From assembly GCA_052034935.1 (NCBI GenBank), contig JBPOIB010000005.1, positions 16,357 to 80,356 on the forward strand: DNA of 64,000 nt, written 5' to 3'. Below, one piece after another: positions 4,255 to 27,700 of this stretch. Position numbers and translations under genes: made by a program. This DNA is from Candidatus Moraniibacteriota bacterium. GTDB taxonomy: Bacteria > Patescibacteriota > Minisyncoccia > Moranbacterales > UBA1568. How positions within the stretch are numbered: the first letter of the stretch is position 1; the number at the start of each line of letters is the position of its first letter. The notes under the pieces were generated by a model. The model ran no database searches. It was not told the DNA's origin and was given only the letters and a program-made list of their open reading frames with translations.

Positions 4255-4266
4255 TTACTATGTCGC

Positions 4267-5578: not shown

Positions 5579-5582
5579 AGAT

Positions 5583-6249: not shown

Positions 6250-6278
6250 TCAGGAAGAAATTCGTAATGTAACAAGCT

Positions 6279-6545: not shown

Positions 6546-6579
6546 GATACCTCGTATATAATTTTGAAAAAATACGCAT

Positions 6580-7143
6580 ATGTCATCCTCTCTCTCGCTC
6601 CCACTCGCCGTCGCTCTCATGATTATTACGGGAATTCTCGGGCTCGGAATCGGTCATTCTCTGACTCCTGAGTATCGGCTTTCGATGTATGAAAAGAACG
6701 GGATGGATCTCGGTCGTGCCGATCGAACACTCGACCTCCGGTATGTGAATGCAATGATTGCTCATCACCGGGGAGCGATGCTGGTCGCAGAACAGGCGAC
6801 AAAAAGTGAACGGACTGAAGTGAAGAATCTCGCTGAGGCGATACTGAAAGATGAGCCGAAGGCGATTGCTGAGCTGTACGCCTGGAAAAAAGACTGGTAT
6901 CAAGATGAACGAAAAGTCGCGGATCCGATTGCCCCGAAACTGGGAAGCTACGATAAGACGTTCGACCTCAGATTCCTCAACGCCGTTATCGCTCACCATG
7001 AAAATGGTGTCGCGATGACTCAGGATGTCCGCCTGAAGTCGAATCGCTCCGAAGTCCTCGATAATGCCGACGCGGTTGAGGCTTTCCTCAAGGGTGGGAT
7101 TACGATGCTCAAGGAGTGGCGCAGCGCTTGGTATAGCCTGTAA
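6580..7143 (+). CDS. DUF305-family protein (tandem duplicated domain)
   Basis: Two repeats carrying NAMIAHHRGAMLVA and NAVIAHHENGVAMT, with an N-terminal TM. Confidence 0.7.
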   Translation: MSSSLSLPLAVALMIITGILGLGIGHSLTPEYRLSMYEKNGMDLGRADRTLDLRYVNAMIAHHRGAMLVAEQATKSERTEVKNLAEAILKDEPKAIAELYAWKKDWYQDERKVADPIAPKLGSYDKTFDLRFLNAVIAHHENGVAMTQDVRLKSNRSEVLDNADAVEAFLKGGITMLKEWRSAWYSL

Positions 7144-7152
7144 TCCATCGGT

Positions 7153-9438: not shown

Positions 9439-9445
9439 CATCACT

Positions 9446-10465: not shown

Positions 10466-10517
10466 CGTGGTACAGTGTGGGTAATCCGAAAAATAACTTC
10501 CTGATAATCTAAAATAT

Positions 10518-10910
10518 ATGAAAATAACCTTTGGCATTATTCTTGCGGCAGCGATTGGTCTCGTTGGGTACCTGTTCATTCAGTCAGGGGGAGCAAGTTC
10601 AACGAGTGAGGCCCCATCGACGAGCAATGTCAGCATCGTTGATGGGCGGCAGATCGTTGTTCTCTCGGCCAAGGCTGGGTATACCCCAAGGGTGAGCGAG
10701 GTAAAGGCTGGAATTCCGACCATTCTTCGGGTTGAAACCAATGGGACTTTTGATTGTTCGTCCCAGATTCGTGTTCCGAGTCTGAATATTAGCCAGGCTT
10801 TGCCGGCTACGGGAGCGACCGATATTATGCTTGGAAGCCTGGCCGCTGGAAAACTTGATGGCACCTGCGGGATGGGTATGTATCCGTTCCAACTCAATGT
10901 TCAGAGTTAA
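10518..10910 (+). CDS. secreted cupredoxin-like small protein
   Basis: Signal peptide; beta-rich; the C-terminal ...DGTCGMGMYPFQLNV resembles the Cys/Met copper-site region of PF13473-type cupredoxin-like domains. Confidence 0.45.
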   Translation: MKITFGIILAAAIGLVGYLFIQSGGASSTSEAPSTSNVSIVDGRQIVVLSAKAGYTPRVSEVKAGIPTILRVETNGTFDCSSQIRVPSLNISQALPATGATDIMLGSLAAGKLDGTCGMGMYPFQLNVQS

Positions 10911-10913
10911 GGC

Positions 10914-11453
10914 ATGAGCAGGACTTCTTACCTTGTTATTGCCCTTGCTGCCCTCGCTCTCATGGAAGGCGTTGCTTGGACTGTCTGGAAGTCCTCAAAG
11001 GAGGCGCCCGCGCACCAGCCAAGGGCCGATGAGGAATCTGTTCGTAAGGAAACGTCGCAGGATCAGTCTTCTCCGGCGACCCATCTTTCCGAAGTTTCGA
11101 ATCCGAGCTCGTCAGGAACGGAGGATGCTGATTCTGAGAGTTTTCCTCCTCCCACCACTGAAGCAAAGAACGGCCGGACGGAACGGACCATTCATATGGG
11201 AGTTCGTCAGTATGCTTGGGACCCTCCCATCATAAAAGCGAAACAGGGCGAGCTGGTCCGCCTCATTGTCCATAATGCCGATGTTCAGCACGGATTGGTA
11301 ATCCCTGAACTTAACGTATTAAACATTGATATCCCTCCAGATGGGGCAGTGATAGAGTTCGTTCCCGATAAAGTTGGGACGTTTGTGTTTTTTTGCTCCT
11401 ACTACTGCGGCGATGGGCACAGCGAGATGCGTGGAAAAATTATCATTGAATAG
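10914..11453 (+). CDS. cupredoxin-domain protein
   Basis: WDPPIIKAKQGELVRLIVHNADVQHGLVIPELNV...GTFVFFCSYYCGDGHSEMRGKIIIE shows the H...C...H...M type-1 copper-site pattern. Confidence 0.6.
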   Translation: MSRTSYLVIALAALALMEGVAWTVWKSSKEAPAHQPRADEESVRKETSQDQSSPATHLSEVSNPSSSGTEDADSESFPPPTTEAKNGRTERTIHMGVRQYAWDPPIIKAKQGELVRLIVHNADVQHGLVIPELNVLNIDIPPDGAVIEFVPDKVGTFVFFCSYYCGDGHSEMRGKIIIE

Positions 11454-11493
11454 GCAGCCCTGTATCCGAAGCCCTAATGACGGAAAAGAAAAA

Positions 11494-11526
11494 CACCCCG
11501 GTTTCTCGGGGTGCTTCTTTTTTGGG
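11494..11526. terminator. bidirectional terminator between convergent genes
   Basis: caccccg-gtttct-cggggtg followed by cttctttttt. Confidence 0.7.
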
Positions 11527-11533
11527 CTATTGA

Positions 11534-11794
11534 CTACGAGAGGTGGGCGCCGATGAGTTTCGTCATCTCGAACATCCCGACCATGTCTTTTCCAAAGACC
11601 GCCTTGAGCGCTTCGTCGCAATTGATATTGCGCTTGTTCGCCGGGTCCTGGAGATTCTTGCTCTTGATATAGGCCCAGAGCTGCTTGGTTACTTCCGAAC
11701 GGGGCATTGGCCCGGCACCGACTACGACTGCGAGTTCTGGGCTGATTTTCATCGGCTTCATGAACGCGGAATTGCTCGTCGCCATAACTTTCAT
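11534..11794 (-). CDS. SWIB/MDM2-domain protein
   Basis: 86 aa; ...SEVTKQLWAYIKSKNLQDPANKRNINCDEALKAVFGKDMVGMFEMTKLIGAHL matches the SWIB fold consensus (WxYIKxxxLQDP...i.cD..L..lfg...v.mfem.kl...Hl). Confidence 0.7.
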   Translation of the reverse strand: MKVMATSNSAFMKPMKISPELAVVVGAGPMPRSEVTKQLWAYIKSKNLQDPANKRNINCDEALKAVFGKDMVGMFEMTKLIGAHLS

Positions 11795-11907
11795 GCTTTA
11801 AAGGGTTACGGCTCCCATTATACACCCTCTTCCGCTCCTGGGAAGTCGTTCCGGCCTCCAGGGTGAATATGGTAAAGTGAAAGAAAGATAAAACAGACAC
11901 AAAACTT

Positions 11908-13098
11908 ATGGGTGAAAAACTCGTCATCAACGATATGGCTGGCGACAGCCAGATGGACTTCATCATCCAGGAGGCGGCCAAACGAGGGGCATCTGACATC
12001 CATATCGATCCTTTGCCGGATGAGGTACTCGTCCGTTTCCGTATTGATGGTGTCTTGCGTGAGGCGAATCGATTTCATCGCGACTATCTCGACCATGTCG
12101 TCAATCAGTTGAAAGTTGCCTGTAATCTCGAGGTGGGAAATGTGCGCTTGCCGGAAGATGGACACTTCTCGATTGAGTTTGCGGATGAAACCACCGGTCT
12201 GAGTAAAATTATCGACCTCCGTATCTCGATGTTTCCGAGCGTGAACGGCACGGCGGCGGTCATGCGTATCCTGAACCGGGCAGAAATGCTCGTCTCGCTC
12301 GATCAGATTTTCACCGACCCAGAAACGCTCACTCAGGTCCGCTCGATGACACTGTCGAGCTATGGCATGGTGCTGACCGCCGGTCCGACCGGCTCGGGCA
12401 AGACAACGTCGCTCTATGCCATGCTCATGGAAACCAACCGCAAGGAACGTAATATCCTTACGCTGGAGGATCCAGTCGAGATGTACTTTGACGATATGCG
12501 CCAGAGCCAGATTCATCCGGAAATCGGCTACAGTTTCGCTAAGGGAATGAAGAGTATTCTTCGTCAGGATCCGGACGTGATCATGATTGGCGAGATCCGG
12601 GACGATGAAACAGCTGAGTATGCTGTTCAGGCCGCGCTGACCGGCCGGCTGGTCTATTCGACGGTTCATGCCAATACGACGATTGGCGCGATTGCTCGCT
12701 TCATCGATATGGATATCGAACGCGGGCTCATTGCCTATGCGATCCGCGGCGTCATTTCACAGCGTCTCGTTCGGAAAATCTGCCCTTCCTGCAACATCGC
12801 CGAAGAGAATCCGCGCCAGGAGTTCATTGACTTCCTCGGCCTGCAGGGGATGATTATCCCGTATCGAAAAGGTGCCGGTTGCAGCGAGTGTGACGGGACC
12901 GGATTCAAGGGCCGAGCCGGGATATTTGAGATCCTCCAATTCGATGACACGCTCCGGGCGATGATCGTCGACAAGGTTTCGATGACCGATTTGCAGGCCT
13001 ATGCGGTGAGTGCGGGCATGCGGACCCTGCGACAGAACGGCATCAATATGGTCGCGGCCGGAGAGACGACACTCGAAGAGATTATCCGCGTCGTCTAG
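11908..13098 (+). CDS. GspE/PilB-family secretion ATPase (short form lacking the N1 domain)
   Basis: Walker A GPTGSGKTT, Asp box, Walker B, His box, and the tetracysteine motif CPSC...CSEC. Confidence 0.85.
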   Translation: MGEKLVINDMAGDSQMDFIIQEAAKRGASDIHIDPLPDEVLVRFRIDGVLREANRFHRDYLDHVVNQLKVACNLEVGNVRLPEDGHFSIEFADETTGLSKIIDLRISMFPSVNGTAAVMRILNRAEMLVSLDQIFTDPETLTQVRSMTLSSYGMVLTAGPTGSGKTTSLYAMLMETNRKERNILTLEDPVEMYFDDMRQSQIHPEIGYSFAKGMKSILRQDPDVIMIGEIRDDETAEYAVQAALTGRLVYSTVHANTTIGAIARFIDMDIERGLIAYAIRGVISQRLVRKICPSCNIAEENPRQEFIDFLGLQGMIIPYRKGAGCSECDGTGFKGRAGIFEILQFDDTLRAMIVDKVSMTDLQAYAVSAGMRTLRQNGINMVAAGETTLEEIIRVV

Positions 13099-13154
13099 CT
13101 GCTTTTTCGTATCACTCAGCCGTTCGCTGCGTGTTAGACTGGGAAGATAAGATT

Positions 13155-14525
13155 ATGCTTTCCCTAAAAAGGTCTATGACGCTGAAGTGGCTTGCCCGGA
13201 TTCATCTCGGACTGCTCCTTTTTTCATTTTTCCTGTACCTCGGATTCGGATTTGTTTTCGGCCCGGAATTTCTCTACCAAGACATTCGGAAAAAACTTTT
13301 CGCGTTCGCCGCGGATGATATCGTCGTGACGGCTGTGGTCCCTGGCCCGCCTGCCGCCCCAATCATCACTGCCACTCCAACTTGTATTTCCGGCGCCCCA
13401 CGTATCGTGCTCGACTGGCCGGATGATAACGGAAGCACGAGTTTCGATGTGGACCGTGACTCGATGGCACTCACGAGCGGATTAGTCGTTTCTGGTTATA
13501 CCGATACCGCCGTTACCGCTGTCACCACGTACAGTTATGAAGTGACCGCCTTTGGACCAATGGATCCAGGTACAGCGGTTTCTGCGTCTTTCTCGGTCAC
13601 AACACTCGACTGCTCAAATATCGCACCGGTGACCGTGACTATCGAGACACTCGGAGGAAAGAGCGTTATAACGGACCGAACCAATGTTGATATCACAAAA
13701 TTTCGGCCGAAGATCTCGGGCACCAGCAATACTCCGGATGCCATCATCGATATCCTGGTTACCAATCCGACGCTTCGAGCCCGGATACTCGCCAATTCCA
13801 ATGGTTATTTCGAATGGCTTCCGCCGATCAAGCTCGATGCCGGCCGGCACTTGATCGAAATTACAGCGACCGATCCTACGGATCCCAGTCGGACCGCGAC
13901 GGATGCACTCATCTTCAAAGTGATAGGAAGTGGGGATAATGGGGGTGGTGGTGCTCGACCGAATGAATCAGGGGATCTGAGTCTTCCGGAAAGTGGAGGT
14001 GGTATCGACTTCTTTGTGACGGTGAATAACGAGCAGTCAATCGTTTCTCAGGAAGAGATACTTTCCGTTACTCTCGCCACCCGGAAAGGTGTTTTTCCTG
14101 AAGACACGACCGCGAGTATCTTCCTCAATAATCCGGATTATCAGGACTCGCTCCAATTTTCGAGGCTGCCGCTCCTCGCCGGACAGAAGAGCGTGACGCT
14201 GTTTGAGCGTCTTCCGCTCTATCTTGAACCCGGCCAGTACCGCGTCCGGGCCGATGTGGTGGTTCGCGGAGAGATGACGAGTCGGGAGGCTTCGTTCACC
14301 TTGAAACCGCTTCCGTTTTTCTCACTTGCCGGGCGGGAAATCAGCTACGCTGAGGCGGCGAATTACATCGGTTTCTTCTTTTTCTCGCTCCTTTTTCTTT
14401 TTCTCTTTCTCCTCCTCTTCTTCGTCCGTGAATACTGGCTGTCGCTGCATCGTCTTCGTTCAATTACCGAGCGCCATCTCGGCCGTCTCGGATTTCTCGG
14501 AACCGGAAAGGGGGTGATCCGATGA
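13155..14525 (+). CDS. bitopic membrane protein with extracellular Ig/FN3-like beta-rich region
   Basis: N-terminal TM (start taken at the ATG 13155 with GGAAG upstream; the track starts at GTG 13131), T/S/V-rich beta repeats, and a C-terminal hydrophobic FFFSLLFLFLFLLLFF segment. Confidence 0.5.
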   Translation: MLSLKRSMTLKWLARIHLGLLLFSFFLYLGFGFVFGPEFLYQDIRKKLFAFAADDIVVTAVVPGPPAAPIITATPTCISGAPRIVLDWPDDNGSTSFDVDRDSMALTSGLVVSGYTDTAVTAVTTYSYEVTAFGPMDPGTAVSASFSVTTLDCSNIAPVTVTIETLGGKSVITDRTNVDITKFRPKISGTSNTPDAIIDILVTNPTLRARILANSNGYFEWLPPIKLDAGRHLIEITATDPTDPSRTATDALIFKVIGSGDNGGGGARPNESGDLSLPESGGGIDFFVTVNNEQSIVSQEEILSVTLATRKGVFPEDTTASIFLNNPDYQDSLQFSRLPLLAGQKSVTLFERLPLYLEPGQYRVRADVVVRGEMTSREASFTLKPLPFFSLAGREISYAEAANYIGFFFFSLLFLFLFLLLFFVREYWLSLHRLRSITERHLGRLGFLGTGKGVIR

Positions 14526-14842
14526 GTACTGAAATATTCCTGCTCCTCCTGTCATTCCTGACGATTGTCTCCCTGCTCTCATCACTGGTTTTCGTCATCG
14601 GCATCGTCTGGCGGGTGGAGATGGAACTCGACATCTCGTTCAAATTCTTTGCTTTCGCTGTTCTCTTCCTGCTCATGATCGAGGGACTCAGTCTGCTCCC
14701 GGCCAGTCGCTTCGAGGCTTGGTGGCAGCTGGCACTCCCGATCGTGAAATTTCTGGCGGCAGTCAATCTTTTGCTCGGACTGTTCTTCATGCGCGACCTC
14801 ATCCGCCGGCTGGACGGTGAGAAAGCGCCAGTTCGGAAGTAA
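14522..14842 (+). CDS. small membrane protein (3 TM), hypothetical
   Basis: ATGA start/stop overlap with the upstream gene. Hydrophobic throughout. Confidence 0.45.
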   Translation: MSTEIFLLLLSFLTIVSLLSSLVFVIGIVWRVEMELDISFKFFAFAVLFLLMIEGLSLLPASRFEAWWQLALPIVKFLAAVNLLLGLFFMRDLIRRLDGEKAPVRK

Positions 14843-14947
14843 CTTTCGAGAGTGAGGAGAAATGAGCGGCTTCGGCTGCTTGTTTTTTTATCTGACCATG
14901 ATAAGGTTGTGGCATCGATTCAACGACCCAACGCGGAGGAATCAACC

Positions 14948-16342
14948 ATGAGAGTTCTTTCCATACTGATACTCGTTCTCGTTACGTCTCTTTCGGTACG
15001 GGCCAACACATTTCCGGAAGAAGCCTACTACGAGCGGGTGCTGGCCGAAGAAGCAAACGTGTTCGTCGATTGCGACGCGCTTGAAACGGGGCGTCTGACC
15101 TGTGAGCGGATCAAGACAGCCCGCCGTTTGGCCTACCAGGCCAAGCTGCAGACTTTCGACCAGCTCGAAGGGAAACGCCGCGTGCCGTATCGGGAATTCG
15201 CGCTCATCGTCTATGATCCGGAAACGAAAGGATTCCGCGATCTGCGTCTCGGCATGCCGGTCAATGTCGCCAAGGCACCTCATTTTCAGCCGATCGTCCT
15301 CTCTGGGGACGCGACTGATTGTCAGGTGACGCGGCTTCGTGGCCAGTCGCTCAACAAGATGGTCTTCGATATCGTCTGTGGCGGACGCACGCTTCACGCC
15401 TACGCGGCGAAACATCTGCTCTTTGCCGATGTGAAGCTGCACGCTCTTTGGGGTGGCCGGACGATTCCGCGGACCGAAGAGGTGGTGTACCTCGAGGTCT
15501 CGCCACACTTCGTTTCCGAGGAAACGGCCCGGGCTGGTCAGGCGGTGTTCATGCAGCTCATCGAGCAAGCATTCACCGATTTGCGTGAGCTCGGTGTCCC
15601 GTCACGGTCTTCGCCCGGACGTCTCCTGGCTGACGTCGTCACCGTCGATTCGGTGGCGAACCTCCTGGTCACTGAACAGGCAGATCCGTGCTTCCGGCAA
15701 GGTGAGCGGACGAAAGGCTGCAAGCGTCTCATTCCACAACGGCCCTATCGGGACAATGCAGAGGTGATGCAAGCAGTGAACACGGCCTTCTTCCTGAATG
15801 GCGGTCTCGCGTATCGCTACATGCGTTCGGGCGCTGCTGCGGGCGGGGCGCTCCAGTTCACGAATAACCGTACGAAGCGGTATATCGGGACCTATAATAG
15901 CGTTCTCAAGAACTGTCCCAGCGCCCGGATCGATCCTGACTTCCAGCGAGGGACGCGGAGTATCCGCAATCTGGCCAAGGCGGCAGCGTGTCTCATCGAC
16001 ATGGAGCGGGCGGCGCTTCCTGAATGGGCGCGCGAAGCCTATCACCGCGATCCAGAATTCGGTCTGCCGATTCTCGGCGCCGCCTACAATGGAGGTGCAG
16101 CACGAGCGAGGACAGTGGCCCGGCTCATCGAAACCTTTGCCAAGAAGCATGGAATCAATGAGGAGATGTTCCTCTTCCATCTTTTTCCTTGGGATGAGTT
16201 CCTCGCCTGGATCGATCGGGTCCAGCACGGGCTGCCACCGGAAACGCGCGTGTACATCGAGAAGATCATCGATACAACGCGGCATCTCTATCGGCATCGT
16301 CCGAAAATGCCAGAAGTGAACTTTGAAGGGGCTCTCGGCTGA
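14948..16342 (+). CDS. secreted hypothetical protein; the C-terminal region carries an SLT-like AYNGG motif
   Basis: GGAGGAA RBS before ATG 14948; signal peptide MRVLSILILVLVTSLSVRA. The motif ...ALQFTNN...AAYNGGAARARTV only weakly resembles lytic-transglycosylase motifs. Confidence 0.5.
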   Translation: MRVLSILILVLVTSLSVRANTFPEEAYYERVLAEEANVFVDCDALETGRLTCERIKTARRLAYQAKLQTFDQLEGKRRVPYREFALIVYDPETKGFRDLRLGMPVNVAKAPHFQPIVLSGDATDCQVTRLRGQSLNKMVFDIVCGGRTLHAYAAKHLLFADVKLHALWGGRTIPRTEEVVYLEVSPHFVSEETARAGQAVFMQLIEQAFTDLRELGVPSRSSPGRLLADVVTVDSVANLLVTEQADPCFRQGERTKGCKRLIPQRPYRDNAEVMQAVNTAFFLNGGLAYRYMRSGAAAGGALQFTNNRTKRYIGTYNSVLKNCPSARIDPDFQRGTRSIRNLAKAAACLIDMERAALPEWAREAYHRDPEFGLPILGAAYNGGAARARTVARLIETFAKKHGINEEMFLFHLFPWDEFLAWIDRVQHGLPPETRVYIEKIIDTTRHLYRHRPKMPEVNFEGALG

Positions 16343-18614: not shown

Positions 18615-19073
18615 ATGGATATATCCGCCCTGTTTAAGTTTCGCCAAGCTGTCCTCTATGGTATCATCGGCCTCTCGGCCGTGGTGGTCGACTATGCCCT
18701 CTTTTTCCTTCTCCACAATACCTTCCATTGGGAGGCTATCGCAGCAACAGCGGTGTCAGTTTTCATCGCGACCGTCTATGCCTTCCTGTTAAACGCCCGC
18801 CTCAATTTCCAGAAGTCAGACCAGCTCCTTCTTCGTTTCCTCTCTTATTTTGCAGTCAGCGGAATCGGCCTTGTTACCAGCATGGCCTGTCTTTTCCTTT
18901 TCAGCTATCAACTAGGTTTCGATTCCAACATCGTAAAAGCAATCTCGATTCCCTTCATTGTCGTGCTTCAATATGTGCTCAATGTTTTTATCTCTTTTTC
19001 TCAAACGGCATTTGAGGGAAAATCAACTGCTCACTCATCAGAAGTAAGCCACCAGCGAGAGCAATCCATATGA
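18615..19073 (+). CDS. GtrA-family membrane protein (polyprenol-linked sugar flippase-like)
   Basis: 152 aa, 4 TM. N-terminal ...FRQAVLYGIIGLSAVVVDYALFFLL is typical of GtrA/DUF2304-like proteins. Confidence 0.65.
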   Translation: MDISALFKFRQAVLYGIIGLSAVVVDYALFFLLHNTFHWEAIAATAVSVFIATVYAFLLNARLNFQKSDQLLLRFLSYFAVSGIGLVTSMACLFLFSYQLGFDSNIVKAISIPFIVVLQYVLNVFISFSQTAFEGKSTAHSSEVSHQREQSI

Positions 19074-20398
19074 ATCAGGACCAGAAAAAAAGTGTTGCCA
19101 TAATCGGTGGAGGATTCGCTGGCCTTTCGGCGGCGTATCACCTCAGCAAAGAGGGGATCCAAGTGACGCTCTATGAGCGCGAATCGACGCTCGGGGGTCT
19201 CGCTGGCGGGTTTTCTCTTCTTGGGATGCCGCTCGAGAAAGCGTATCATTTTTTCTACAAGACCGACCGTCATCTCCTCGGATTCGCCGAAGCACTCGGC
19301 ATCAAGGCAAAAGCGGCCTTCTACCAGAGCTCGGTTTCGACCTATTTCGATGGCAAACTTTATCCCTTCATGAGTGCTAAGGACCTGCTCTCGTTTTCCC
19401 CGCTGCCGTTCCTCGACCGGATCCGTTTCGGGGTAAGTGCGCTCTATCTCCAATTTCTGAAGGACTGGAAGCCGCTGTCGAAGATTACAGCGTACGAATG
19501 GCTCAAGAAATGGGCCGGTCCCAAGGTGACGGAAGTCATCTGGGAGCCGCTTCTCAAGGGGAAATTCAACAAGTACTACAAGGATATCGCCATGTCATGG
19601 CTTTGGCGCCGCATTCAGATCCGGGCAGTCTCCAAGGATAAGGGGGTTGAGATGCTCGGCTACTTCCACGGCGGATTCGTCGCCATCATCGACGCGGCCG
19701 CAGAAAAGATCAAATCTTTCGGCGGAACGATCATAACAAATCAGGGAATCGACCGGATTGAGTCAAGCGAAAAGGGTGCTGTGCTCGTCATAAACGGCGA
19801 GCGCCGAACGTATGATGCGGTGATTGCGACAGTCCCATCGCCTGCTTTCGCCCGCCTCATCGCGGGGAATACTGGAGCGAGCGAGGAGTATCTCGCAAAG
19901 CTCAAAAGTATCGATTATCTCGGCGCGGTCATTATGGTCTTCGCGACCGACCAGGAAATCAGCCCGTACTTCTGGCACAACATCAATGATTCGGAGATCC
20001 CTTTCCTCGTGCTTCTCTCGACCTCGGCGCTGACGGGGACCGAGGCGTTCAATGGCAAGCACATCTATTACATCGGAGCGTATGTTCCAGCTGAGCATCG
20101 CTATTTCTCCGAGTCTGAAACCGGTATCATGGCTGAATGGAAAGCGGGGCTGAAGAAGATGTTCGTCCATTTCGACGAGTCGAAGATTCTCGAGGAAAAA
20201 CTCTTCCGATTCAAGGATGCCCAGCATATCGTCGGAACCGACTATATCGACAAGATTCCGGCCTATGAATCACCGGTGAAAGATGTCTATCTTTCGAATT
20301 TCTCCCAGATTTTCCCGGATGACCGGGGAACGAACTATGCCATCGAGGAGGGAAAGAAAATCGCCTCGCTTGTCATGAAAAATATCCGCATTGAATAG
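19070..20398 (+). CDS. FAD/NAD(P)-binding oxidoreductase (amine-oxidase / PPO / phytoene-desaturase superfamily; UGM-like possible)
   Basis: N-terminal dinucleotide fold VAIIGGGFAGLSAAYHL...YERESTLGGLAGGF. Start overlaps the gtrA stop (ATGA). Confidence 0.7.
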   Translation: MNQDQKKSVAIIGGGFAGLSAAYHLSKEGIQVTLYERESTLGGLAGGFSLLGMPLEKAYHFFYKTDRHLLGFAEALGIKAKAAFYQSSVSTYFDGKLYPFMSAKDLLSFSPLPFLDRIRFGVSALYLQFLKDWKPLSKITAYEWLKKWAGPKVTEVIWEPLLKGKFNKYYKDIAMSWLWRRIQIRAVSKDKGVEMLGYFHGGFVAIIDAAAEKIKSFGGTIITNQGIDRIESSEKGAVLVINGERRTYDAVIATVPSPAFARLIAGNTGASEEYLAKLKSIDYLGAVIMVFATDQEISPYFWHNINDSEIPFLVLLSTSALTGTEAFNGKHIYYIGAYVPAEHRYFSESETGIMAEWKAGLKKMFVHFDESKILEEKLFRFKDAQHIVGTDYIDKIPAYESPVKDVYLSNFSQIFPDDRGTNYAIEEGKKIASLVMKNIRIE

Positions 20399-20402
20399 CG
20401 CT

Positions 20403-23261
20403 ATGCCTAAAGGAGTGATACTACTAAACAATATCGATCTTACGATACTTCTCCCCACTTACAATGAGGCGGCGAATGTCGCTCCTTTGCTGCGGGCAAT
20501 CGTGCAGGCGCTCAAAGAGGTTCCGGTTGCCTATGAAATTCTCTTCGTTGATGACAGCTCGGACATGACGCCGGATGTCATCCGGAGAATGCAGGAGCTG
20601 TATCCGAATCTGCGGTTGATTCACCGGTCTCCGGAAGAGAGAACTGGCCTCGCGACAGCACTCATCGAAGGATTTTCGGCGGCGCAAGGACAATATATTC
20701 TCTGCATGGACTCCGATCTTCAACATCCTCCCCAGGTCATCCCGAAGCTTTTGGAAAAGCTCAAGGAAAGTGATGCGGATATTGTGGTTGCGACCCGATA
20801 TGCGGGTGAGGGGAGCGCTGAGGGACTCGGAAGCCCCTACCGGCGTGCCGTGTCTCATCTCTGCCGATTCGCTTCATGGTGCCTTATTCCCCAGACTCGG
20901 AAGACAACGGATCCGGGGAGCGGCTTTTTCGTCTTTCGGAAGTCGATTGTCGGTCGGGTGAATTTCCGTGGTCTGCGCGGGTTCAAAATCCTTATTGATA
21001 TCCTCGCTCGTACCAAGAAGCTAGATGTTGCCGAAATCCCCTTCGTTTTCCTCAAACGGACGAATGATGAAAGCAAAGCGACCGTTGAGCAGGGATTCGC
21101 TTTCATTTTCCATCTCCTGACGCTCAAATACCTCGACTATTTCCCGACGAAGATTCCGAGACAGACAAAGAGTGTCGAGAGCGCGTCCCCTATCACACGA
21201 AAGCCTTTTGATTGGAAACACGCTTTGCCGGGCTGGATCGCCGATGGAATTATCGCCCTACTTGTCGGCTTTGTTGGCTGGTATCTCATCGGTTACTACG
21301 CCGCTTTCAACTATCTTTACACGGGCTACGAGGACTGGATCTATCACGCCTTCCGGGTGAAGTCGCTTCAGGATCACGGCATGGTGGCGTGGGACCATGT
21401 CTGGAGCAACGGCATCAGCTACTGGAAGCTTTACCAGTACGTGGCGCATTTCCTCATCCTCGGCGCGGTCAAATTGACCGGCTTGCCGATTACCAAAGTT
21501 CTCCTCTTGTCGCTGGTCGGCCTGTATATCGGTCTCCGGGTAGTCCTGTATTTTATCTTGCGTTCGCTCGGCGTGCAGCGCATTTTTGCTCTCTTGCCGG
21601 TCATCGCCTCGTATACCATCGTTCAAGAGTGGGGCTCGATGCAGGACTACTCGATCTACGTTGCGTTCATCGCGTTTCCGCTTTACCTTGTTCTCTGGAT
21701 CTTGACGTTCCGCGACCTCAAGTGGATCTATCTCTTAGCGGCGGTGACCGGCGCGGTCTGGACATTCCATCCGGTGCTTGGGTTTAATGCGACTATCCTC
21801 CTCGGTTTCCTTGCCCTGTTCTCGCGGCTGAAGACGGACTTTTCAAAGCTGGTACGCGTCGGTGCGGTCTACATATTTGCCTCTGCCCCGTTCTGGGTCT
21901 CCTACTTCACGGCGGGCTATTTCTTCACAAATCCGCTTTTCAAGTCCTACATCTATCTCTCGACATCGGTTCTGGCCCCGTACGCCGGGCTGAGCATGAT
22001 TTACTGGATTCTCCTCGGTATCTCATGGTTGCTTGTCATCTGGCGCTCCAATCTCGTCCCGACGTGGACTAAAGTACTCCTCGTCTACGCGTCATCCTAT
22101 CTCATTCTTATTTATCTCGGTCAGCAGAACTATCTTCCGAATTTCCTCGTCCAATTCCAGTTCTCTCGAGGACTGACCGCGGTTGCCTTTGCGCTTGTCT
22201 TTGTCTTCGGATCAGTATTGCAGCATACTCTCGGTCAAGCGCGGATGCAGGCGGTCCGTTTTATCGCAGTTGTGCTTATCGCGACAGCGACCGTTCATGC
22301 GGTCGACATCGCCTCGCGCTTCTATGTCTCACCGCCGGTGAACGAGATCCAGAACGCGGTCGCGACCTACTTCCAGGACCGCGAATTGCCGAAGGGGAGC
22401 GTCTTCACGGAGAATGTTTCTGAGGCGACGTATTTCGCTAAAGGTGGAATCCGGTACGTCACTTCATACAATGAGCACATGCAGCCGCATCCGTATTCGA
22501 CGCGTCTTCGTGTACTCATGCACAGCCGACTCGGGTATACGGGAATCTCGAAATCGCATATTACGAACGTGGAAAATTATGCGACCGTGCTCGGTATCGA
22601 GTACCTTTTTCTCCCGGCTAACTCGCCGCTGGTCAAAGGTCTGACTGAAAAAGAGAACGCCATGTTTGCTGTGATGGCGTACGTCGACAGCGAGCCTCTG
22701 ACGGATGCGATTGCTGTCCTTCGGAATACCAATCCGATAATTTCAGCGTTTGCTCTCGAGCGGTCGGATTTCCCGGACCGGCTCTGGAATGAGGAGCTCC
22801 CACTCCCCACGATCCATGTCGGATCGTACAAGCGTTGGGACGACCGGATTGCCGAGATGGCCGAGCTGATGCGCTCGGAGAAAATCGTTCCCCTCGAAAC
22901 CGAATTCATTCCGACGAATGAGTTGAGGCTTTCCGTGACCGATCCAGCCAAAGTCTTTCTGATCAAAGACCTGCTTGTTATTGTTAATCAGAGTTATGAT
23001 GCCCGATGGGCGGTTACCGATACGGAAGAGGGTGCTCCATCGATTACCCCGACGACCCTCCGTTTCATGGCCGTTGACCGAGGTGAAGGGCGGTTGTCGC
23101 TTCCGATCATGCTTCTCAACGAATGGCCATGGTGGTATTTTCCCGTCCAGGCATTTGGATTGGTGGCCATTCTCTTCACGCTGTTCTGGACCTTGAAGAC
23201 GAGCGGTTTCCCGAGACGATTCATGAAAATGCTCTCAGAGCGATACTATGCCAACAAATAA
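20403..23261 (+). CDS. fusion protein: N-terminal GT2 polyprenol-phosphate sugar synthase (DPM1/GtrB-like) + C-terminal ~13-TM GT-C-like domain
   Basis: LLPTYNEAANV...FVDDSSDMT...CMDSDLQHPP matches GT-A fold DxD motifs. Residues ~270-950 are polytopic with long loops. Confidence 0.7.
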   Translation: MPKGVILLNNIDLTILLPTYNEAANVAPLLRAIVQALKEVPVAYEILFVDDSSDMTPDVIRRMQELYPNLRLIHRSPEERTGLATALIEGFSAAQGQYILCMDSDLQHPPQVIPKLLEKLKESDADIVVATRYAGEGSAEGLGSPYRRAVSHLCRFASWCLIPQTRKTTDPGSGFFVFRKSIVGRVNFRGLRGFKILIDILARTKKLDVAEIPFVFLKRTNDESKATVEQGFAFIFHLLTLKYLDYFPTKIPRQTKSVESASPITRKPFDWKHALPGWIADGIIALLVGFVGWYLIGYYAAFNYLYTGYEDWIYHAFRVKSLQDHGMVAWDHVWSNGISYWKLYQYVAHFLILGAVKLTGLPITKVLLLSLVGLYIGLRVVLYFILRSLGVQRIFALLPVIASYTIVQEWGSMQDYSIYVAFIAFPLYLVLWILTFRDLKWIYLLAAVTGAVWTFHPVLGFNATILLGFLALFSRLKTDFSKLVRVGAVYIFASAPFWVSYFTAGYFFTNPLFKSYIYLSTSVLAPYAGLSMIYWILLGISWLLVIWRSNLVPTWTKVLLVYASSYLILIYLGQQNYLPNFLVQFQFSRGLTAVAFALVFVFGSVLQHTLGQARMQAVRFIAVVLIATATVHAVDIASRFYVSPPVNEIQNAVATYFQDRELPKGSVFTENVSEATYFAKGGIRYVTSYNEHMQPHPYSTRLRVLMHSRLGYTGISKSHITNVENYATVLGIEYLFLPANSPLVKGLTEKENAMFAVMAYVDSEPLTDAIAVLRNTNPIISAFALERSDFPDRLWNEELPLPTIHVGSYKRWDDRIAEMAELMRSEKIVPLETEFIPTNELRLSVTDPAKVFLIKDLLVIVNQSYDARWAVTDTEEGAPSITPTTLRFMAVDRGEGRLSLPIMLLNEWPWWYFPVQAFGLVAILFTLFWTLKTSGFPRRFMKMLSERYYANK

Positions 23262-24774
23262 CGCTTCCAAATCCGAACGCTACCTCGCTTCGACGCGGAT
23301 CGACAATCTGACGATTGTTTTCCTCCTGTCAGCGCCGTTTGTCGTGGTATTTTACGCCTCCTTCGTTTTCAATCCGGCGAACGCTGACCACCTCGTCCTC
23401 TATGCTTTCCAGGTGCTGGCTGATGCGATCAGTATCACGGTCTTGGCCGGACTCTGGGTGACCGTGCTTCTTGATGTGGTCGTGGAGTGGCATCATCGTC
23501 TCCGGAGAGTCTGGGATGCGGCTTTTCTCGAAACAGACAAACCGACCATCGACTGCATTGTGACCACTTTCAATGAGCCGATCGATGTCGTAGAGAAAAC
23601 CTTCAAAGCAGTACTCGCCATGGAGTATCCTCATTCGAGCTATGTCTTTGACGACGGCCAGTCAGCTGGGGTAGAAGCGCTCGCTAAGAAACTCGGCATC
23701 CAGTATGTGACCCGCAGTGACCGCAAGCATGCGAAAGCGGGGAATCTCAATAGCGGGCTCCAGAGCTGCACGGGCGATTTCTTTGCGGTCTTTGATGCTG
23801 ACCAGGTACCGAAATCGGATTTCATCACGACACTGCTTCCATATATGGCAAACAGCCGTGTCGCTATGGTGCAATCGCCTCAGCATTATGAGAATACTCA
23901 CCAATTCATTGCAGCCGGTGCAGCGCAGGCTCAAGAGGTCTTTTATCGCTACGTCTGTCCCTCCAAGAACATTTCGAACTCAGCCTTCTGCGTCGGGACA
24001 AACATGATTTTCCGGCGCTCGGCCATCAATCATATTGGTGGTATCGCCTTCAACAAGTCGGAAGACATTTGGACATCGCTTAAACTCCACGAGAGCGGTT
24101 GGCAGACGATTTTTGTGAACAAAGTTCTCGCGATCGGCCAGGCCCCGGCGACAGTCGTCTCCTACTTCAAACAGCAGCTCCGTTGGGCGAGAGGCGGTTT
24201 GGAGATGCTTTTCTTTCATAATCCGCTTCGTTCGAACAAGCTTCAGCTCGATCAGCGTATCCAGTACTTTATGTCGAACTCCTTTTTCCTCGTCGGGATT
24301 TCGATTACGGTCTATCTCCTTTTCCCGCTTCTCTATCTCCTTTTCTCCATCAAGCCACTCACGACCGAATCTCCCTTCACCTGGCTGATCCACTATGTCC
24401 CGTTCTTCCTGCTCTACTATTCGCTGACCTGGCTTCTGACGGGCCGCCTCTCGGTCTCAACACTTGCGACCGCACTGGCGACTTTCTTTCCGTACCTTCT
24501 CGCTCTGTTTTCGGTATTTTTCGACAAGGAACATGAATGGACGGCGACAACCTCAAAGAAAAGCTCTGAAGATTTCTTCATGAAATGGGCCTGGCCGCAT
24601 GTTTTCATCATCGTGCTTACTCCGCTCGCGCTCGTGGTCGGTTGGTATAATAACTACGACTTCTGGTCGGGGCTGTTCTACTCGATGTGGTCAGTGATCA
24701 ACATGCTTCTCCTCTACGTATTCATTACCGGAGAAAAACGTTCCGGTATTCGGGCAAAGACCACTGTTATCTAA
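23248..24774 (+). CDS. processive family-2 glycosyltransferase (cellulose/curdlan-synthase-like)
   Basis: TFNEP..., DDG, FDAD, TED-like, and QQLRWARG (QxxRW), with flanking TM helices. Confidence 0.75.
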   Translation: MPTNNASKSERYLASTRIDNLTIVFLLSAPFVVVFYASFVFNPANADHLVLYAFQVLADAISITVLAGLWVTVLLDVVVEWHHRLRRVWDAAFLETDKPTIDCIVTTFNEPIDVVEKTFKAVLAMEYPHSSYVFDDGQSAGVEALAKKLGIQYVTRSDRKHAKAGNLNSGLQSCTGDFFAVFDADQVPKSDFITTLLPYMANSRVAMVQSPQHYENTHQFIAAGAAQAQEVFYRYVCPSKNISNSAFCVGTNMIFRRSAINHIGGIAFNKSEDIWTSLKLHESGWQTIFVNKVLAIGQAPATVVSYFKQQLRWARGGLEMLFFHNPLRSNKLQLDQRIQYFMSNSFFLVGISITVYLLFPLLYLLFSIKPLTTESPFTWLIHYVPFFLLYYSLTWLLTGRLSVSTLATALATFFPYLLALFSVFFDKEHEWTATTSKKSSEDFFMKWAWPHVFIIVLTPLALVVGWYNNYDFWSGLFYSMWSVINMLLLYVFITGEKRSGIRAKTTVI

Positions 24775-24805
24775 GATCATCAACCAATCCCCTAATCATC
24801 CTCTT

Positions 24806-25705
24806 ATGGCCAAAGCAAACTCACAATCAATCAGAAGTTTTCTTGCGAATTCCGGCTATCTCATCCTCGTTTTTGTCTTTGCTTTTGCGATTGCGACTCA
24901 GGCGCTCATGCACAAGATTAATAATTATGAGCTGAATAAGAGTCTTATATTTCTGCTCGTGAAAAAGGAGCGAGTCGATGTATCGACGACAGTAAGCGGT
25001 CGTGTTGAAGAAATTCTTGTGCGCCCGGGAGTCCATGTGAACGAGGGAGATGTGCTGGTCCGTTTGAAAGACGACGGCCGTGAACTCAAGATTGCGGCGC
25101 TTCGCCCGGTGGCTCGCGAGAATCTTTCAGCTCGTACCGAACTAGAGCTGCTTTTATCTCAGGAAAATGAATACGAGCTCCGCGCCCCGCGGTCCGGTGT
25201 CGTAGAGTCGATCTTATCTACCAAGGGGACGACCGTCATCAACGGCGCAGTGGTGCTGATTGTGTATGCTGATGATGAGCTCGAGCTTGTCGGGACAATT
25301 CGACCAGAGCAGTATAATTTGATCGACAAACACCGAAGTATTAGTATCTTCAACCCGCGTCTCGGTCAAGCCTTCACGGCTTCATTCCAGGGGATTACTG
25401 GCGTACGGGATGATCTTCTGCCAGATGGTACGATTGCTCCAATACAGCAGCCGGGTGGTCAGTCGACAAACGACCAGCAGCCAGTGGAGATGTACGAGAT
25501 ACGCTTCGCTCTTAACGAAAAAGAAGAGGGCGCATCCTTTATTGAGGGCGAGCGGCTGGAGGTGATTTCTGAAAATGCCGACATCGAGCAGGAGAAGCCG
25601 ATTTATCGGCTCGCCAAGCTCTGGAACAGCCTCATCCTCGGAACGGACTTCGAATCGCTTCGGAAATATAATGAAGGAAAAAATGATTCTCAAGAATCGC
25701 AGTAA
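24806..25705 (+). CDS. HlyD/membrane-fusion-like protein (single N-terminal TM, lipoyl-like hairpins)
   Basis: VSGRVEEILVRPGVHVNEGDVLVRL and YELRAPRSGVVESI resemble the beta-barrel/lipoyl motifs of periplasmic adaptor proteins. Confidence 0.45.
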   Translation: MAKANSQSIRSFLANSGYLILVFVFAFAIATQALMHKINNYELNKSLIFLLVKKERVDVSTTVSGRVEEILVRPGVHVNEGDVLVRLKDDGRELKIAALRPVARENLSARTELELLLSQENEYELRAPRSGVVESILSTKGTTVINGAVVLIVYADDELELVGTIRPEQYNLIDKHRSISIFNPRLGQAFTASFQGITGVRDDLLPDGTIAPIQQPGGQSTNDQQPVEMYEIRFALNEKEEGASFIEGERLEVISENADIEQEKPIYRLAKLWNSLILGTDFESLRKYNEGKNDSQESQ

Positions 25706-27641
25706 GTGGATCGTGCTCGGAACCGCCGTCCTGGCGGTTCTTTTCTGGCAAGTATTTTCATCGCCAATGAAACCGGAGAGTGAGGTGATTCTCGAGGAAA
25801 AAAAGTTCGCTCCTGAGACGCGTGGCGTACCGCTCCGAACCAATACCTGGTTCTCGAGCCTTTTCTTCCAATTCCCAACCGCTCCGCTCTTTGTCTTCCC
25901 CGGATCATACCAGTTGAATGAGCGCGGCCTCTCGGTCAGCGATTCGAATGCTCTTGGTACGGAAAATACCATCTTCGGGAGCTTTGATCCACTCTGCGAT
26001 ATCGCTGGGCCGTTGCCTCTCACGGGCGTGAAAGTAGAACGGTACGGTGACTGGGATATCGTCGCCCGGGTGATATCGAAAGAGGGAGCAGCCTGGTCAG
26101 CACATTTCATCCAGGGATCGCCGGTCGTCAATATCGGCGACTTCTCAGAACCCCTTTCTTTTTCCTGCAAGCCAGGAATAGAGGTGTCAAACTACCGGAG
26201 CGACACCCTTCTGGCTCGCCAGGGTGACCAGCCGGTATTCCTGGTTCAAGCAGAGAGTCCGATTGCCGAGTCCGGAGGACTCCGTTCAGCTACTGGAAAG
26301 TACCGGATCATCCAGGTACCAAAAGAGACGGCCCAGCCTCTCGATTTTTTCCTCGATCTTCCCTGGGTGACCATACTCGATACGCAGTATGCGACATCGG
26401 ATCGGGATGGCTTCTTGCATACGCAGCTCGTGACCGTGACCGGAGATGACGAGCCTATTCTCATGACACTCTGGCCGCATCATCGTCTCGGCGGTGCCGA
26501 AATTCGGGGTGAACAGTTGGGGAGTTACTCCACGGTCTATGGTCGGCTGGATCTGCAACTCTCGAATCGGATTGATATTGAAACAGCCAAGCCAAAGCTT
26601 GTAACCGGCTTCTCGCCCGTCTCTGGCCAGAAGTCAGTCGAAGAAATACGCTCGGCGGTGAAAGAGGATACTGCTCGCTATCTGTCCGAGACGATACCGG
26701 GCGGAGTTTACTTCCGTGGTACCTGGCTCGGTGGTCTCGCGAGCGTCATCCAGTTGGCTGAAGCCTATGGAATGGACGAAGAGGAGCGAGTATTGCTTGA
26801 TCTTCTGGAGCGCCAGCTTCGGAGTTCACTCGTCGACTTTGCCTATAGCGAAGAAAAAAAGATGTTCATCGCTTCGAAAAATTCCGAATTCGGCAATGAG
26901 AAGGGGAACGACCATCACTTCCACTACGGTTACTACCTGCGCTCAGCCGCGGTTTTGTTCGATGCCCGTCCGGCTGCGGGCGATGACTTGAAAGCGATCC
27001 TCGATGAGATGGCACTCGATATCGCGAATAGCGACCGGTCATCGGAACGCTACCCTTTTCTCCGTCACTTCTCACCGTACGCCGGACACTCGTGGGCGGA
27101 CGGGGAAGCGCTTTTCCAAGATGGGAACAATCAGGAATCATCATCGGAAGCGATGAATGCCTGGTACGGGCTGTATCTCTGGGGGAAATCGACTGACAAT
27201 AGTCGTCTTACGAAGATCGCCACAGGCCTCTATACCAATGAACTCCTCGGCCTCCGGAGCTACTGGTTCGGCGAAGGGAATCCATTTCCGACAGGATTTG
27301 AGCATCCGCTCGTTTCGCTCGTGTGGGGCGGGAAACGCGATTATGCGACCTGGTTCAGTGGGGACCCGATGCATATCCAAGGGATTCAGTGGCTACCCAT
27401 CACGCCGGCATCCGAGTATCTCGGAACGTTGCCGAATCAGCCGGAACGGATGAGGGATCTCGGTCTGGATCCTTCCGCGGCCGCGGACCATGAGTGGGGC
27501 GACCTCTATATCGCGTACCTTTCCTCTTTTGACCCGGTCGAAGCGGCGAAGCATCTCGACACTGCCTCAAAACGCCAAGCAATCAAATCGAAAGCGTTGC
27601 TGTATCATGTCGTCCTGATGAATCTGGAAAACAGGCGGTAG
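25683..27641 (+). CDS. GH81-like endo-beta-1,3-glucanase, membrane-anchored/extracytoplasmic
   Basis: AAGGA RBS; N-terminal TM. ...NDHHFHYGYY... and ...NQESSSEAMNAWYGLYLWG match, from memory, the GH81 catalytic motifs (Asp in DHHxHYGY; ExxxE pair). Confidence 0.5.
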   Translation: MILKNRSKWIVLGTAVLAVLFWQVFSSPMKPESEVILEEKKFAPETRGVPLRTNTWFSSLFFQFPTAPLFVFPGSYQLNERGLSVSDSNALGTENTIFGSFDPLCDIAGPLPLTGVKVERYGDWDIVARVISKEGAAWSAHFIQGSPVVNIGDFSEPLSFSCKPGIEVSNYRSDTLLARQGDQPVFLVQAESPIAESGGLRSATGKYRIIQVPKETAQPLDFFLDLPWVTILDTQYATSDRDGFLHTQLVTVTGDDEPILMTLWPHHRLGGAEIRGEQLGSYSTVYGRLDLQLSNRIDIETAKPKLVTGFSPVSGQKSVEEIRSAVKEDTARYLSETIPGGVYFRGTWLGGLASVIQLAEAYGMDEEERVLLDLLERQLRSSLVDFAYSEEKKMFIASKNSEFGNEKGNDHHFHYGYYLRSAAVLFDARPAAGDDLKAILDEMALDIANSDRSSERYPFLRHFSPYAGHSWADGEALFQDGNNQESSSEAMNAWYGLYLWGKSTDNSRLTKIATGLYTNELLGLRSYWFGEGNPFPTGFEHPLVSLVWGGKRDYATWFSGDPMHIQGIQWLPITPASEYLGTLPNQPERMRDLGLDPSAAADHEWGDLYIAYLSSFDPVEAAKHLDTASKRQAIKSKALLYHVVLMNLENRR

Positions 27642-27664: not shown

Positions 27665-27700
27665 AACGGGCTTCTCAAAAGAGAAGCCCGGCCTTTTTAT
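27665..27700. terminator. bidirectional terminator
   Basis: cgggcttctc-aaaa-gagaagcccg followed by gcctttttat. Confidence 0.8.

Follow-up and report, generated by a model that had tools for sequence, protein, structure and literature searches.

Organization of the locus

We analyzed a stretch of 64,000 nucleotides from contig JBPOIB010000005.1 (hereafter the window, meaning the whole of this stretch), focusing on a string of genes that encodes a processive family 2 glycosyltransferase (GT2), a HlyD-type adaptor, and a family 81 glycoside hydrolase (GH81), together with the genes immediately preceding them. On the forward strand, positions 18615–27641 harbor six open reading frames (ORFs) that overlap or almost abut (table 1). 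The genes for the GtrA-family protein and the flavin adenine dinucleotide (FAD)-dependent enzyme share 4 nt, and the 3′ end of the fusion gene that follows them (ORF 20391–23261, 956 aa, for which the public gene call begins at 20403) overlaps the GT2 start by 14 nt. The hairpin behind the last gene has seven G–C pairs in its 10-bp stem and T-rich tails on both strands, and the next gene after it, encoding a NUDIX protein (Pfam; 27697–28257), is convergent. Judged from this arrangement, the region is most likely a single six-gene operon of a bacterium of the Candidate Phyla Radiation (CPR; Patescibacteria) close to Moranbacteria, and its products most likely make, export, decorate, and trim a beta-1,3-linked glucose polymer. 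An earlier note on this DNA had proposed a beta-1,3-glucan (curdlan-like) synthase module here; this idea appears largely right but incomplete, having considered only the last three of the six genes.

Table 1. Features of the gene string in the window, and of two comparison loci in which processive GT2 and hydrolase genes occur in series.
Locus	Feature	Coordinates	Strand	Basis or remark
Window	GtrA-family small membrane protein, candidate polyprenyl-phosphate-sugar flippase	18615..19073	+	Pfam GtrA_DPMS_TM; first of string
Window	FAD-dependent oxidoreductase, amine-oxidase/phytoene-desaturase superfamily (NCBIfam PRK07233)	19070..20398	+	Pfam, NCBIfam
Window	Predicted polyprenyl-phosphate hexose synthase (DPMS/GtrB/ArnC type GT2), N-terminal cytoplasmic domain of fusion	20391..21182	+	PDB, Pfam
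Window	X, GT-C-fold membrane glycosyltransferase domain of fusion	21183..23261	+	Fold comparison
Window	Processive BcsA-like GT2, predicted polymer synthase/channel	23248..24774	+	Pfam, PDB, motifs
Window	Single-pass HlyD/periplasmic-adaptor-type membrane-fusion protein	24806..25705	+	Pfam Biotin_lipoyl, HlyD_3
Window	GH81, predicted endo-beta-1,3-glucanase, membrane-anchored or secreted	25671..27641	+	Pfam, PDB alignment
Window	Bidirectional hairpin terminator closing the operon	27667..27690		10-bp stem, T-rich tails
L078	Module 1, GT2	5159..6613
L078	Module 1, GH81	~8358..9278
L078	Module 2, GT2	10001..11476
L078	Module 2, GH81	12698..14272
L004	Pair 1, GT2	1775..3283
L004	Pair 1, GH5	3286..5871		Abuts its GT2
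L004	Middle module, X–GT2–adaptor–GH81	6023..12261
L004	Pair 3, GT2	12889..14493
L004	Pair 3, GH26	14490..15530		Overlaps its GT2

Sequence features of the hydrolase, synthase, and adaptor

The identity of the hydrolase is central to the interpretation of the locus. The earlier note had assigned it to GH81 on the strength of a DHHFHYGY motif and an E-x3-E pair, and this assignment was borne out by a Pfam Glyco_hydro81C match of 159.2 bits (cut-off 25.6; residues 321–631), by an almost end-to-end alignment with the GH81 structure 6fop from C. thermocellum (E = 5.7e-58; residues 55–651), and by an alignment with BH0236 (E = 9e-43). Both motifs, DHHFHYGY at 26910–26933, which includes the catalytic Asp, and NNQESSSEA at 27126–27152, which includes the Glu-x3-Glu pair, aligned to identical motifs in BH0236; in the 6fop alignment DHHFHYGY was likewise matched, and the deposited 6fop sequence reads QASSSEA at the second motif. 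The corresponding residues D414, E489, and E493 were invariant in all 73 GT2-linked GH81 sequences. We looked for affiliation with another GH family and for loss of the catalytic Asp/Glu positions, and found neither, so that the protein is a true GH81 with a predicted glucanase activity. Its likely start lies at 25671 (MKEKM, followed by the membrane anchor), in agreement with a public gene call of 656 aa for the exact sequence, and it has one hydrophobic segment, located at the N-terminus (residues 11–33). The start of the longest ORF (25575) was rejected, as it would impose a 131-nt overlap with the adaptor gene and lies before the membrane anchor.

The only activity reported for GH81 enzymes is that of an endo-beta-1,3-glucanase, with laminaritriose as the smallest substrate; cleavage of barley mixed-linkage glucan, of pustulan, and of carboxymethyl cellulose (CMC) is slight or absent (PMC9609564). 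Given this activity range, the polymer handled by the module would be expected to contain consecutive beta-1,3-linked glucose residues, which argues against cellulose as well as against the strictly alternating mixed-linkage glucan of rhizobia.

The GT2 product (508 aa) matches the Pfam families Glyco_tranf_2_3, Glycos_transf_2, Glyco_trans_2_3, and Cellulose_synt, and the D, D, D, QxxRW architecture that the earlier note had recognized in it is fully present. The motifs FDDGQ (residues 134–138), FDADQ (182–186), KSEDIW (270–275), and QQLRW (309–313) contain, respectively, the elements DDG (135–137; nt 23650–23658), DAD (183–185; nt 23794–23802), SED (271–273; nt 24058–24066), and QQLRW itself (nt 24172–24186), all of which were invariant in the alignment of homologs. 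BcsA structures aligned over residues 99–490 overall (7lby, E = 5.4e-45, residues 99–469; 4hg6, E = 1.1e-43), and within residues 340–490 of the BcsA alignment the segment WTATTSK emerged as the equivalent of the FxVTxK motif, as part of a gating-loop-like WTATTSKK at 24538–24561. About six hydrophobic segments, two N-terminal and about four C-terminal, flank the catalytic domain. From the full motif set, the channel helices, and the gating loop, we assign the protein to the processive, membrane-embedded GT2 class. The chain stops after the last transmembrane (TM) segment and had no Pfam match to PilZ, leaving no C-terminal regulatory domain of this or another kind; Pfam scans of the neighboring genes returned no BcsB family match either. 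Homologs sharing 47–94% identity come nearly all from CPR/Patescibacteria metagenome-assembled genomes (MAGs), including those of Moranbacteria, Woesebacteria, Levybacteria, Gottesmanbacteria, Berkelbacteria, and Parcubacteria.

The protein encoded between the synthase and the hydrolase (299 aa) had been described as a HlyD-like protein with a single TM segment. It is indeed matched by Biotin_lipoyl (34.6 bits; cut-off 22.1) and HlyD_3 (33.6 bits; cut-off 22.2), whereas the NCBIfam RND_mfp match (2.5e-11) fell under its cut-off, and its only hydrophobic segment is N-terminal (residues 9–38). The half-lipoyl matches lie about 27 residues apart according to the Pfam coordinates, a gap that makes a long TolC-docking alpha-hairpin unlikely; a single-sequence AlphaFold2 model of the adaptor reached a confidence score (pLDDT) of just 34, too low for use. 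Since CPR bacteria and Actinomycetota have no outer membrane, and since the hairpin is apparently vestigial, a scaffold or wall-spanning role is likelier for this protein than that of a TolC bridge. As to the two roles suggested for it earlier, the rhizobial bgsBA genes provide a precedent for a HlyD-type adaptor beside a glucan synthase, and nothing supports its acting as a substitute for BcsB.

Conservation of the GT2–GH81 pairing

To place the module in a wider genomic context, 80 loci harboring a GT2 relative were collected by scanning one genome per species and then searched by tblastn with the window proteins. In 72 of these 80 species-level loci, distributed over CPR phyla and Actinomycetota, a GH81 gene was found within about 4 kb of the GT2 gene. 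Among the remaining eight, six lie on contigs that break off no more than about 1.5 kb from the GT2 or the adaptor gene, and a seventh (L027) is cut on the upstream side, which is where about ten other CPR loci carry their GH81. The sole locus with full 10-kb flanks and no GH81 belongs to a Kineosporiaceae MAG (L075) and is possibly a natural exception or a case of a different partner hydrolase. In most loci the hydrolase gene is found downstream and on the same strand, whereas about ten CPR loci have it upstream of the X gene and one locus (L003) has it on the opposite strand; as proximity is kept despite these varied positions, the linkage survives rearrangement. By these gene-order comparisons the GT2–GH81 pairing is not a product of chance, and its conservation across two phyla is the pattern that would be expected, by analogy with BcsA and BcsZ, of a synthase and its cognate hydrolase, a parallel that the earlier note had drawn.

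About half of the 80 loci are from Actinomycetota, cultured strains among them, with GT2 proteins sharing 36–39% identity with that of the window; carriers were found in Microbacteriaceae, Demequina, Leifsonia, Salinibacterium, Cryobacterium, Lysinimonas, and Propionibacteriaceae. Cultured carriers include Leifsonia sp. McL0618 (NZ_CP188258, module at about 3.6058–3.6105 Mb), Lysinimonas soli KACC 13362, Demequina phytophila NBRC 109391, and Microbacterium terricola. A HlyD-type gene follows the GT2 gene in CPR loci and also in a Leifsonia locus (L063), in which the genes for the GT2 (9815–11698), a HlyD_3-positive protein (11695–12426), and the GH81 (12426–14462) overlap one another. Approximately 36 of the 39 Actinomycetota loci show the same spacing, with a gap of about 1 kb between GT2 and GH81, and the best 120 matches to the Leifsonia GT2 were all Microbacteriaceae, Demequina, or metagenome sequences.

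Two loci carry more than one synthase–hydrolase pair (table 1). In Demequina sp. SO4-18 (L078), two tandem GT2–GH81 modules occupy positions 5159–14272. Cellulomonas flavigena produces a curdlan-type polymer, and each of three Cellulomonas genomes encodes two CrdS-like GT2s and two GH81s (PMC3544764); these gene counts, which the two modules of L078, from the related Demequina, equal, offer a circumstantial link to the GT2–GH81 module. In a Levybacteria genome (L004, identical to L025; GCA_013816255), three processive-GT2/hydrolase pairs stand in a row at 1775–15530, involving GH5, GH81, and GH26, respectively. The coupling of a synthase to its own hydrolase looks like a recurring design at this locus and suggests that several distinct beta-glycans are made by a single CPR genome, with a dedicated hydrolase for each.

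These distributions bear on the possibility that the GH81 serves nutrition or attack, being directed at beta-1,3-glucans of foreign origin (laminarin, walls of fungi or algae, or host material), and that it neighbors the GT2 for reasons of regulation or history. CPR bacteria probably live on or together with other cells, and the protein carries an export signal or membrane anchor, both of which would suit such a role. It would also suit the fact that characterized bacterial GH81s are all degradative enzymes (PMC9609564). We nevertheless consider a foraging role improbable. The adjacency persists through several changes of gene order in CPR as well as in free-living Actinomycetota, the overlapping genes suggest translational coupling, and Demequina L078 has two GT2–GH81 modules in tandem. 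Moreover, the window protein has a single N-terminal hydrophobic segment and no Pfam carbohydrate-binding module, and the operon contains no sugar-uptake genes.

Several TPA_asm MAG records labeled "uncultured Bdellovibrionales", "Gammaproteobacteria", or "Pseudomonadales" were also observed to hold CPR-type modules up to 94% identical to that of the window (L006–L009, L011, L013, L019, L020, L022, L027, L028, L031, L033, L035–L038, L040, L041, and L043). The taxonomic labels of these records are probably wrong.

A probable glycosylation arm upstream of the synthase in CPR loci

The first half of the operon encodes what resembles a complete Gtr-type set, namely GtrA, a polyprenyl-phosphate hexose synthase, and a GT-C enzyme, in one gene string. 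The GtrA protein has four hydrophobic segments and matches Pfam GtrA_DPMS_TM with 70.3 bits (cut-off 26.1). The DPMS domain, comprising the first ~250 residues of the fusion, was matched most strongly by the dolichol-phosphate-mannose synthase of P. furiosus (PDB: 5mlz; E = 1.7e-39; residues 13–245), followed by GtrB (5ekp; E = 1.6e-14) and ArnC (E = 1.6e-13); it also matches Pfam Glycos_transf_2 (103.9 bits) and bears the motifs VDDSSD and DSDLQH.

The remainder of the fusion, which we call X (~690 residues), is predicted to comprise about 13 TM helices, an extracytoplasmic portion with an alpha/beta and a beta-sandwich domain, and a C-terminal TM helix. None of 26 members of this family produced a Pfam match at E ≤ 1, nor did PDB sequence searches return a match at E ≤ 10; X was identified by fold comparison only, which revealed a GT-C fold with protein O-mannosyltransferases and oligosaccharyltransferases among the best matches. 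X belongs to a GT-C family not described before. An invariant motif, GYEDWIYHAFR in the window (21324–21356) and GY(E/Q)DW..HAFR across homologs, places an Asp about ten residues past TM1, in the first extracytoplasmic loop, and this Asp (fusion residue 315) is a candidate catalytic residue, equated with those of solved GT-Cs by position only. X homologs were found in CPR only, fused to DPMS in the closer clade and free-standing (650–700 aa) in the more distant ones, and in almost all CPR loci the GT2 has one of them directly upstream, with X and GT2 overlapping in nearly all. No X was detected by tblastn in the Actinomycetota loci, and two long ORFs upstream of the Leifsonia GT2 had no similarity to it in hhalign comparisons (probability 0.1). 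We had also considered X as an analog of BcsB, a candidate role rejected in view of its GT-C fold.

Between GtrA and the fusion lies the FAD enzyme, which matches Pfam Amino_oxidase (89.8 bits) and NCBIfam NF005560 (428 bits; cut-off 252). The family name given by NCBIfam under PRK07233 is "hypothetical protein", and PDB matches were weak and confined to the flavin-binding regions. GtrA and the FAD enzyme are encoded exactly in those loci that have a DPMS-like domain, fused or separate (L006–L010, L018, L020, L023, and L032), so that this cassette is found in only part of the CPR loci. The FAD enzyme is 80–90% identical in four related loci (L006–L010 apart from L009, 81%) and 52–56% identical in L018, L020, L023, and L032; in the close loci it is better conserved than its neighbors, and its place is always between GtrA and the gene or domain of DPMS type. 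The lipid-linked sugar or the polyprenol may be what it acts on, and we speculate that it could loosely resemble DprE1, which serves the donors of GT-C arabinosyltransferases.

The presence of this arm prompts one to ask if the GT-C is instead the key enzyme, with the module building a wall- or membrane-linked glycoconjugate and the GT2 supplying a short primer or a periplasmic-type oligoglucan. Such a role would be compatible with the complete Gtr-like set, with the resemblance of X to transferases that modify proteins, and with the nearly universal X/GT2 overlap in CPR. It seems to us quite unlikely, because the Actinomycetota retain GT2, adaptor, and GH81 without X, indicating that the core works in the absence of the GT-C; furthermore, the GT2 has the channel-forming helices and the gating loop seen in synthases that extrude a polymer, and the DPMS/GtrA/FAD cassette is confined to a subset of the CPR loci. 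The upstream genes do modify one aspect of the original proposal: the GH81 identity of the hydrolase was confirmed, but "curdlan-like" in the sense of linear and unbranched is doubtful in this organism because the DPMS–GT-C fusion, GtrA, and the FAD oxidoreductase are encoded directly upstream (18615–23261).

Relationship to known polysaccharide systems

Phylogenetic placement of the GT2, likewise envisaged in the earlier note, was carried out by constructing a neighbor-joining (NJ) tree with bootstrap from GH81-linked GT2s, BcsA, BgsA of Sinorhizobium meliloti and R. leguminosarum, and other HlyD-linked rhizobial GT2s, leaving aside CrdS, Tts/Gtf, and hyaluronan synthases. From Levybacteria, the GT2 that neighbors GH5 entered this tree only as a 9-aa fragment, and its placement was ignored. 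The GH81-linked GT2s of both phyla formed one clade with 100% bootstrap, separate from BcsA, from BgsA, and from the other HlyD-linked rhizobial GT2s.

Among characterized systems, the closest resemblance found is to BgsB–BgsA of S. meliloti and other rhizobia, as both systems pair a PilZ-less BcsA-like GT2 with an adjoining HlyD-type protein and have no BcsB. Gene pairs of this type (often annotated "hemolysin D" and "curdlan synthase") were the best full-length plasmid-borne matches to the window GT2, with 32–33% identity over 80–87% of the query (E = 6e-57). Several differences separate the two. The gene order is reversed, with the rhizobial adaptor upstream of the GT2; BgsA is longer (664–669 aa vs. 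508 aa), with about 160 additional residues at its C-terminus; and the rhizobial genes have no linked hydrolase, whereas the module of the window has a GH81. The C-terminal domain of BgsA is reported to bind cyclic di-GMP (PMC5567048), and in the two-membrane envelope of rhizobia BgsA requires BgsB together with TolC (PMC13438883). Rhizobia seem to hold a broader, little-studied class of HlyD-linked GT2 synthases. On the Agrobacterium tumefaciens plasmid pAtCG920 (L090; 1165–4725), a HlyD-family gene was found directly upstream of a gene annotated "cellulose synthase catalytic subunit", with no BcsB neighbor.

The Bcs system (BcsA–BcsB with the GH8 enzyme BcsZ) has in common with the window the catalytic motifs, the channel architecture, and a synthase operon encoding a hydrolase of its own product. 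It differs by the presence of PilZ, BcsB, and BcsC, by a hydrolase directed at beta-1,4 (GH8) rather than beta-1,3 bonds (GH81), and by the distinct clade of its GT2. CrdS, encoded by crdASC in Agrobacterium, is a processive GT2 synthase with a proposed linear beta-1,3-glucan product, the product class suggested here, and is likened to the window GT2 by description rather than by sequence. The crdASC locus is not known to include a GH81 or a HlyD-type gene, and it operates in a two-membrane envelope; no gene of the window operon was identified as crdA or crdC, for which no profile was run.

These similarities make it necessary to weigh whether the GT2 produces cellulose or a BgsA-type mixed 1,3;1,4 glucan, with the GH81 cutting occasional beta-1,3 bonds or having a non-canonical specificity. 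The best structure and NCBIfam matches of the GT2 are cellulose synthases, "cellulose synthase (UDP-forming)" is the annotation that the family carries in many sources, and the product made in S. meliloti by the bgsBA-type pairs that lead the plasmid matches is of mixed linkage. The GT2 nevertheless scores far under the NCBIfam BcsA equivalog cut-offs (TIGR03030, 241.8 vs. 699.1; NF008558, 190.5 vs. 992), lacks both PilZ and a BcsB partner, and falls into a clade apart from BcsA and BgsA; the need of GH81 for consecutive beta-1,3 bonds, with barley mixed-linkage glucan and CMC barely or not cut, points in the same direction. Known cellulose operons have GH8, GH5, or GH6 partners, and at the Levybacteria locus L004 the GH5 is paired with another GT2 than the one linked to GH81. 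We therefore regard a different glucan as rather unlikely, though less so than the other two alternatives discussed above.

The upstream arm can be compared with Gtr systems (GtrA, GtrB, and GtrC) and with their Gram-positive CsbB/YfhO-type equivalents, as the window has counterparts of all three Gtr parts. Here, by contrast, a single polypeptide combines the synthase with the GT-C, for which Pfam has no matching family, an FAD oxidoreductase separates GtrA from the fusion, and the set sits in a glucan-synthase operon rather than in one for O-antigen or teichoic-acid modification. The GH81, finally, shares with the characterized members of its family (CtLam81A, 6fop; BH0236, 5t49; TfLam81A; PsLam81A) the catalytic Asp and Glu-x3-Glu over a near full-length alignment, but those enzymes are secreted, degradative, and often equipped with a carbohydrate-binding module or dockerin, whereas that of the window has only an N-terminal anchor or signal and is genetically tied to a synthase. 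In the literature searched, we found no description of a GH81 linked to a GT2 or HlyD gene, nor of curdlan in connection with CPR; the module is real, conserved, and so far undescribed.

Proposed model and significance

Considering these lines of evidence jointly, we favor, with moderate confidence, the view that the operon encodes a synthase-dependent beta-1,3-glucan system equipped with its own glucanase, together with a Gtr-like extracytoplasmic glycosylation arm in CPR. The GT2 would polymerize glucose from a nucleotide sugar, presumably UDP-glucose, at the cytoplasmic face and thread the growing chain through its own membrane channel. The HlyD-type protein may act as an extracytoplasmic collar or scaffold on the synthase, as proposed for BgsB with BgsA, here operating without an outer-membrane partner. 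The anchored GH81 would cut the product outside the cell, serving in release, length control, or the clearing of stalled chains, comparable to BcsZ in cellulose synthesis. In the CPR arm, the DPMS/GtrB-type domain would make a polyprenyl-phosphate hexose, GtrA would flip it across the membrane, and the fused GT-C would transfer the sugar on the outer face. The likeliest acceptor would be the nascent glucan, resulting in branching or capping; alternatively, the acceptor could be an envelope component to which the glucan becomes attached.

Several observations weigh against this model. The nearest characterized relative found, BgsA, makes a mixed 1,3;1,4 glucan and not a pure 1,3 one, and the sequence of a GT2 cannot by itself tell the linkage of its product, so that it is solely the partner GH81 that points to beta-1,3. 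The GT2 clade is known from sequences alone, with nothing but generic names in the databases, and the deep branches of the tree are poorly supported (bootstrap 34–64), leaving the order among BcsA, BgsA, the rhizobial GT2s, and the GH81-linked clade unsettled. No significant pairwise BLAST similarity connects the adaptor with the BgsB-like protein or with its Leifsonia counterpart, and the co-transcription of all six genes is suggested by the gene overlaps alone.

In its broader form, the proposal would be that CPR bacteria, and in a simpler manner many Actinomycetota, make a beta-1,3-glucan as an envelope or matrix polymer by means of an unrecognized synthase clade, with the fused DPMS/GT-C of CPR branching, capping, or anchoring the glucan. 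We advance this generalization tentatively and hold it to be possible rather than probable.

Bacterial beta-1,3-glucan synthesis is understood genetically almost only from crdASC of Agrobacterium. With a distinct GT2 clade that is nearly always linked to GH81, its range would grow by hundreds of species from two single-membrane phyla, and this clade may account at the genetic level for the polymer of curdlan type for which Cellulomonas has long been known. The occurrence of carriers in culturable Leifsonia, Microbacterium, Demequina, Cryobacterium, and Lysinimonas makes the module directly testable. The HlyD-type component would imply that such adaptors work with polysaccharide synthases in bacteria that have no outer membrane, and the new GT-C family gains a strong functional clue from its fusion to a donor-making enzyme. 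For CPR, the module points to a surface glucan that could mediate host attachment. If the glucan is indeed modified by a Gtr-type route, this would be the first synthase-extruded polysaccharide modified via a lipid-linked sugar, and would amount to a branched beta-glucan similar to that of fungal walls on an ultra-small, probably host-attached bacterium.

Other features of the window

Elsewhere in the window, a second HlyD-type adaptor (387 aa) adjoins an AcrB-type resistance–nodulation–division (RND) transporter (1118 aa; Pfam ACR_tran, 534 bits) on the reverse strand at 34606–39132; this pair resembles part of a tripartite pump, though the bacterium is expected to have no outer membrane. Two long ORFs at 13131–14525 (464 aa) and 14852–16342 (496 aa) lacked Pfam matches at E ≤ 1e-5. 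Type IV pilus components typical of CPR genomes lie just upstream of the operon, in the form of a type II/IV secretion ATPase (T2SSE, 362 bits; 11908–13098) and a small protein bearing a prepilin N-methylation motif (17676–18185). At 7153–10465, a P-type heavy-metal ATPase containing an HMA domain precedes a DsbD_2 membrane protein which, in an unusual fusion, bears an HMA domain of its own at the N-terminus.

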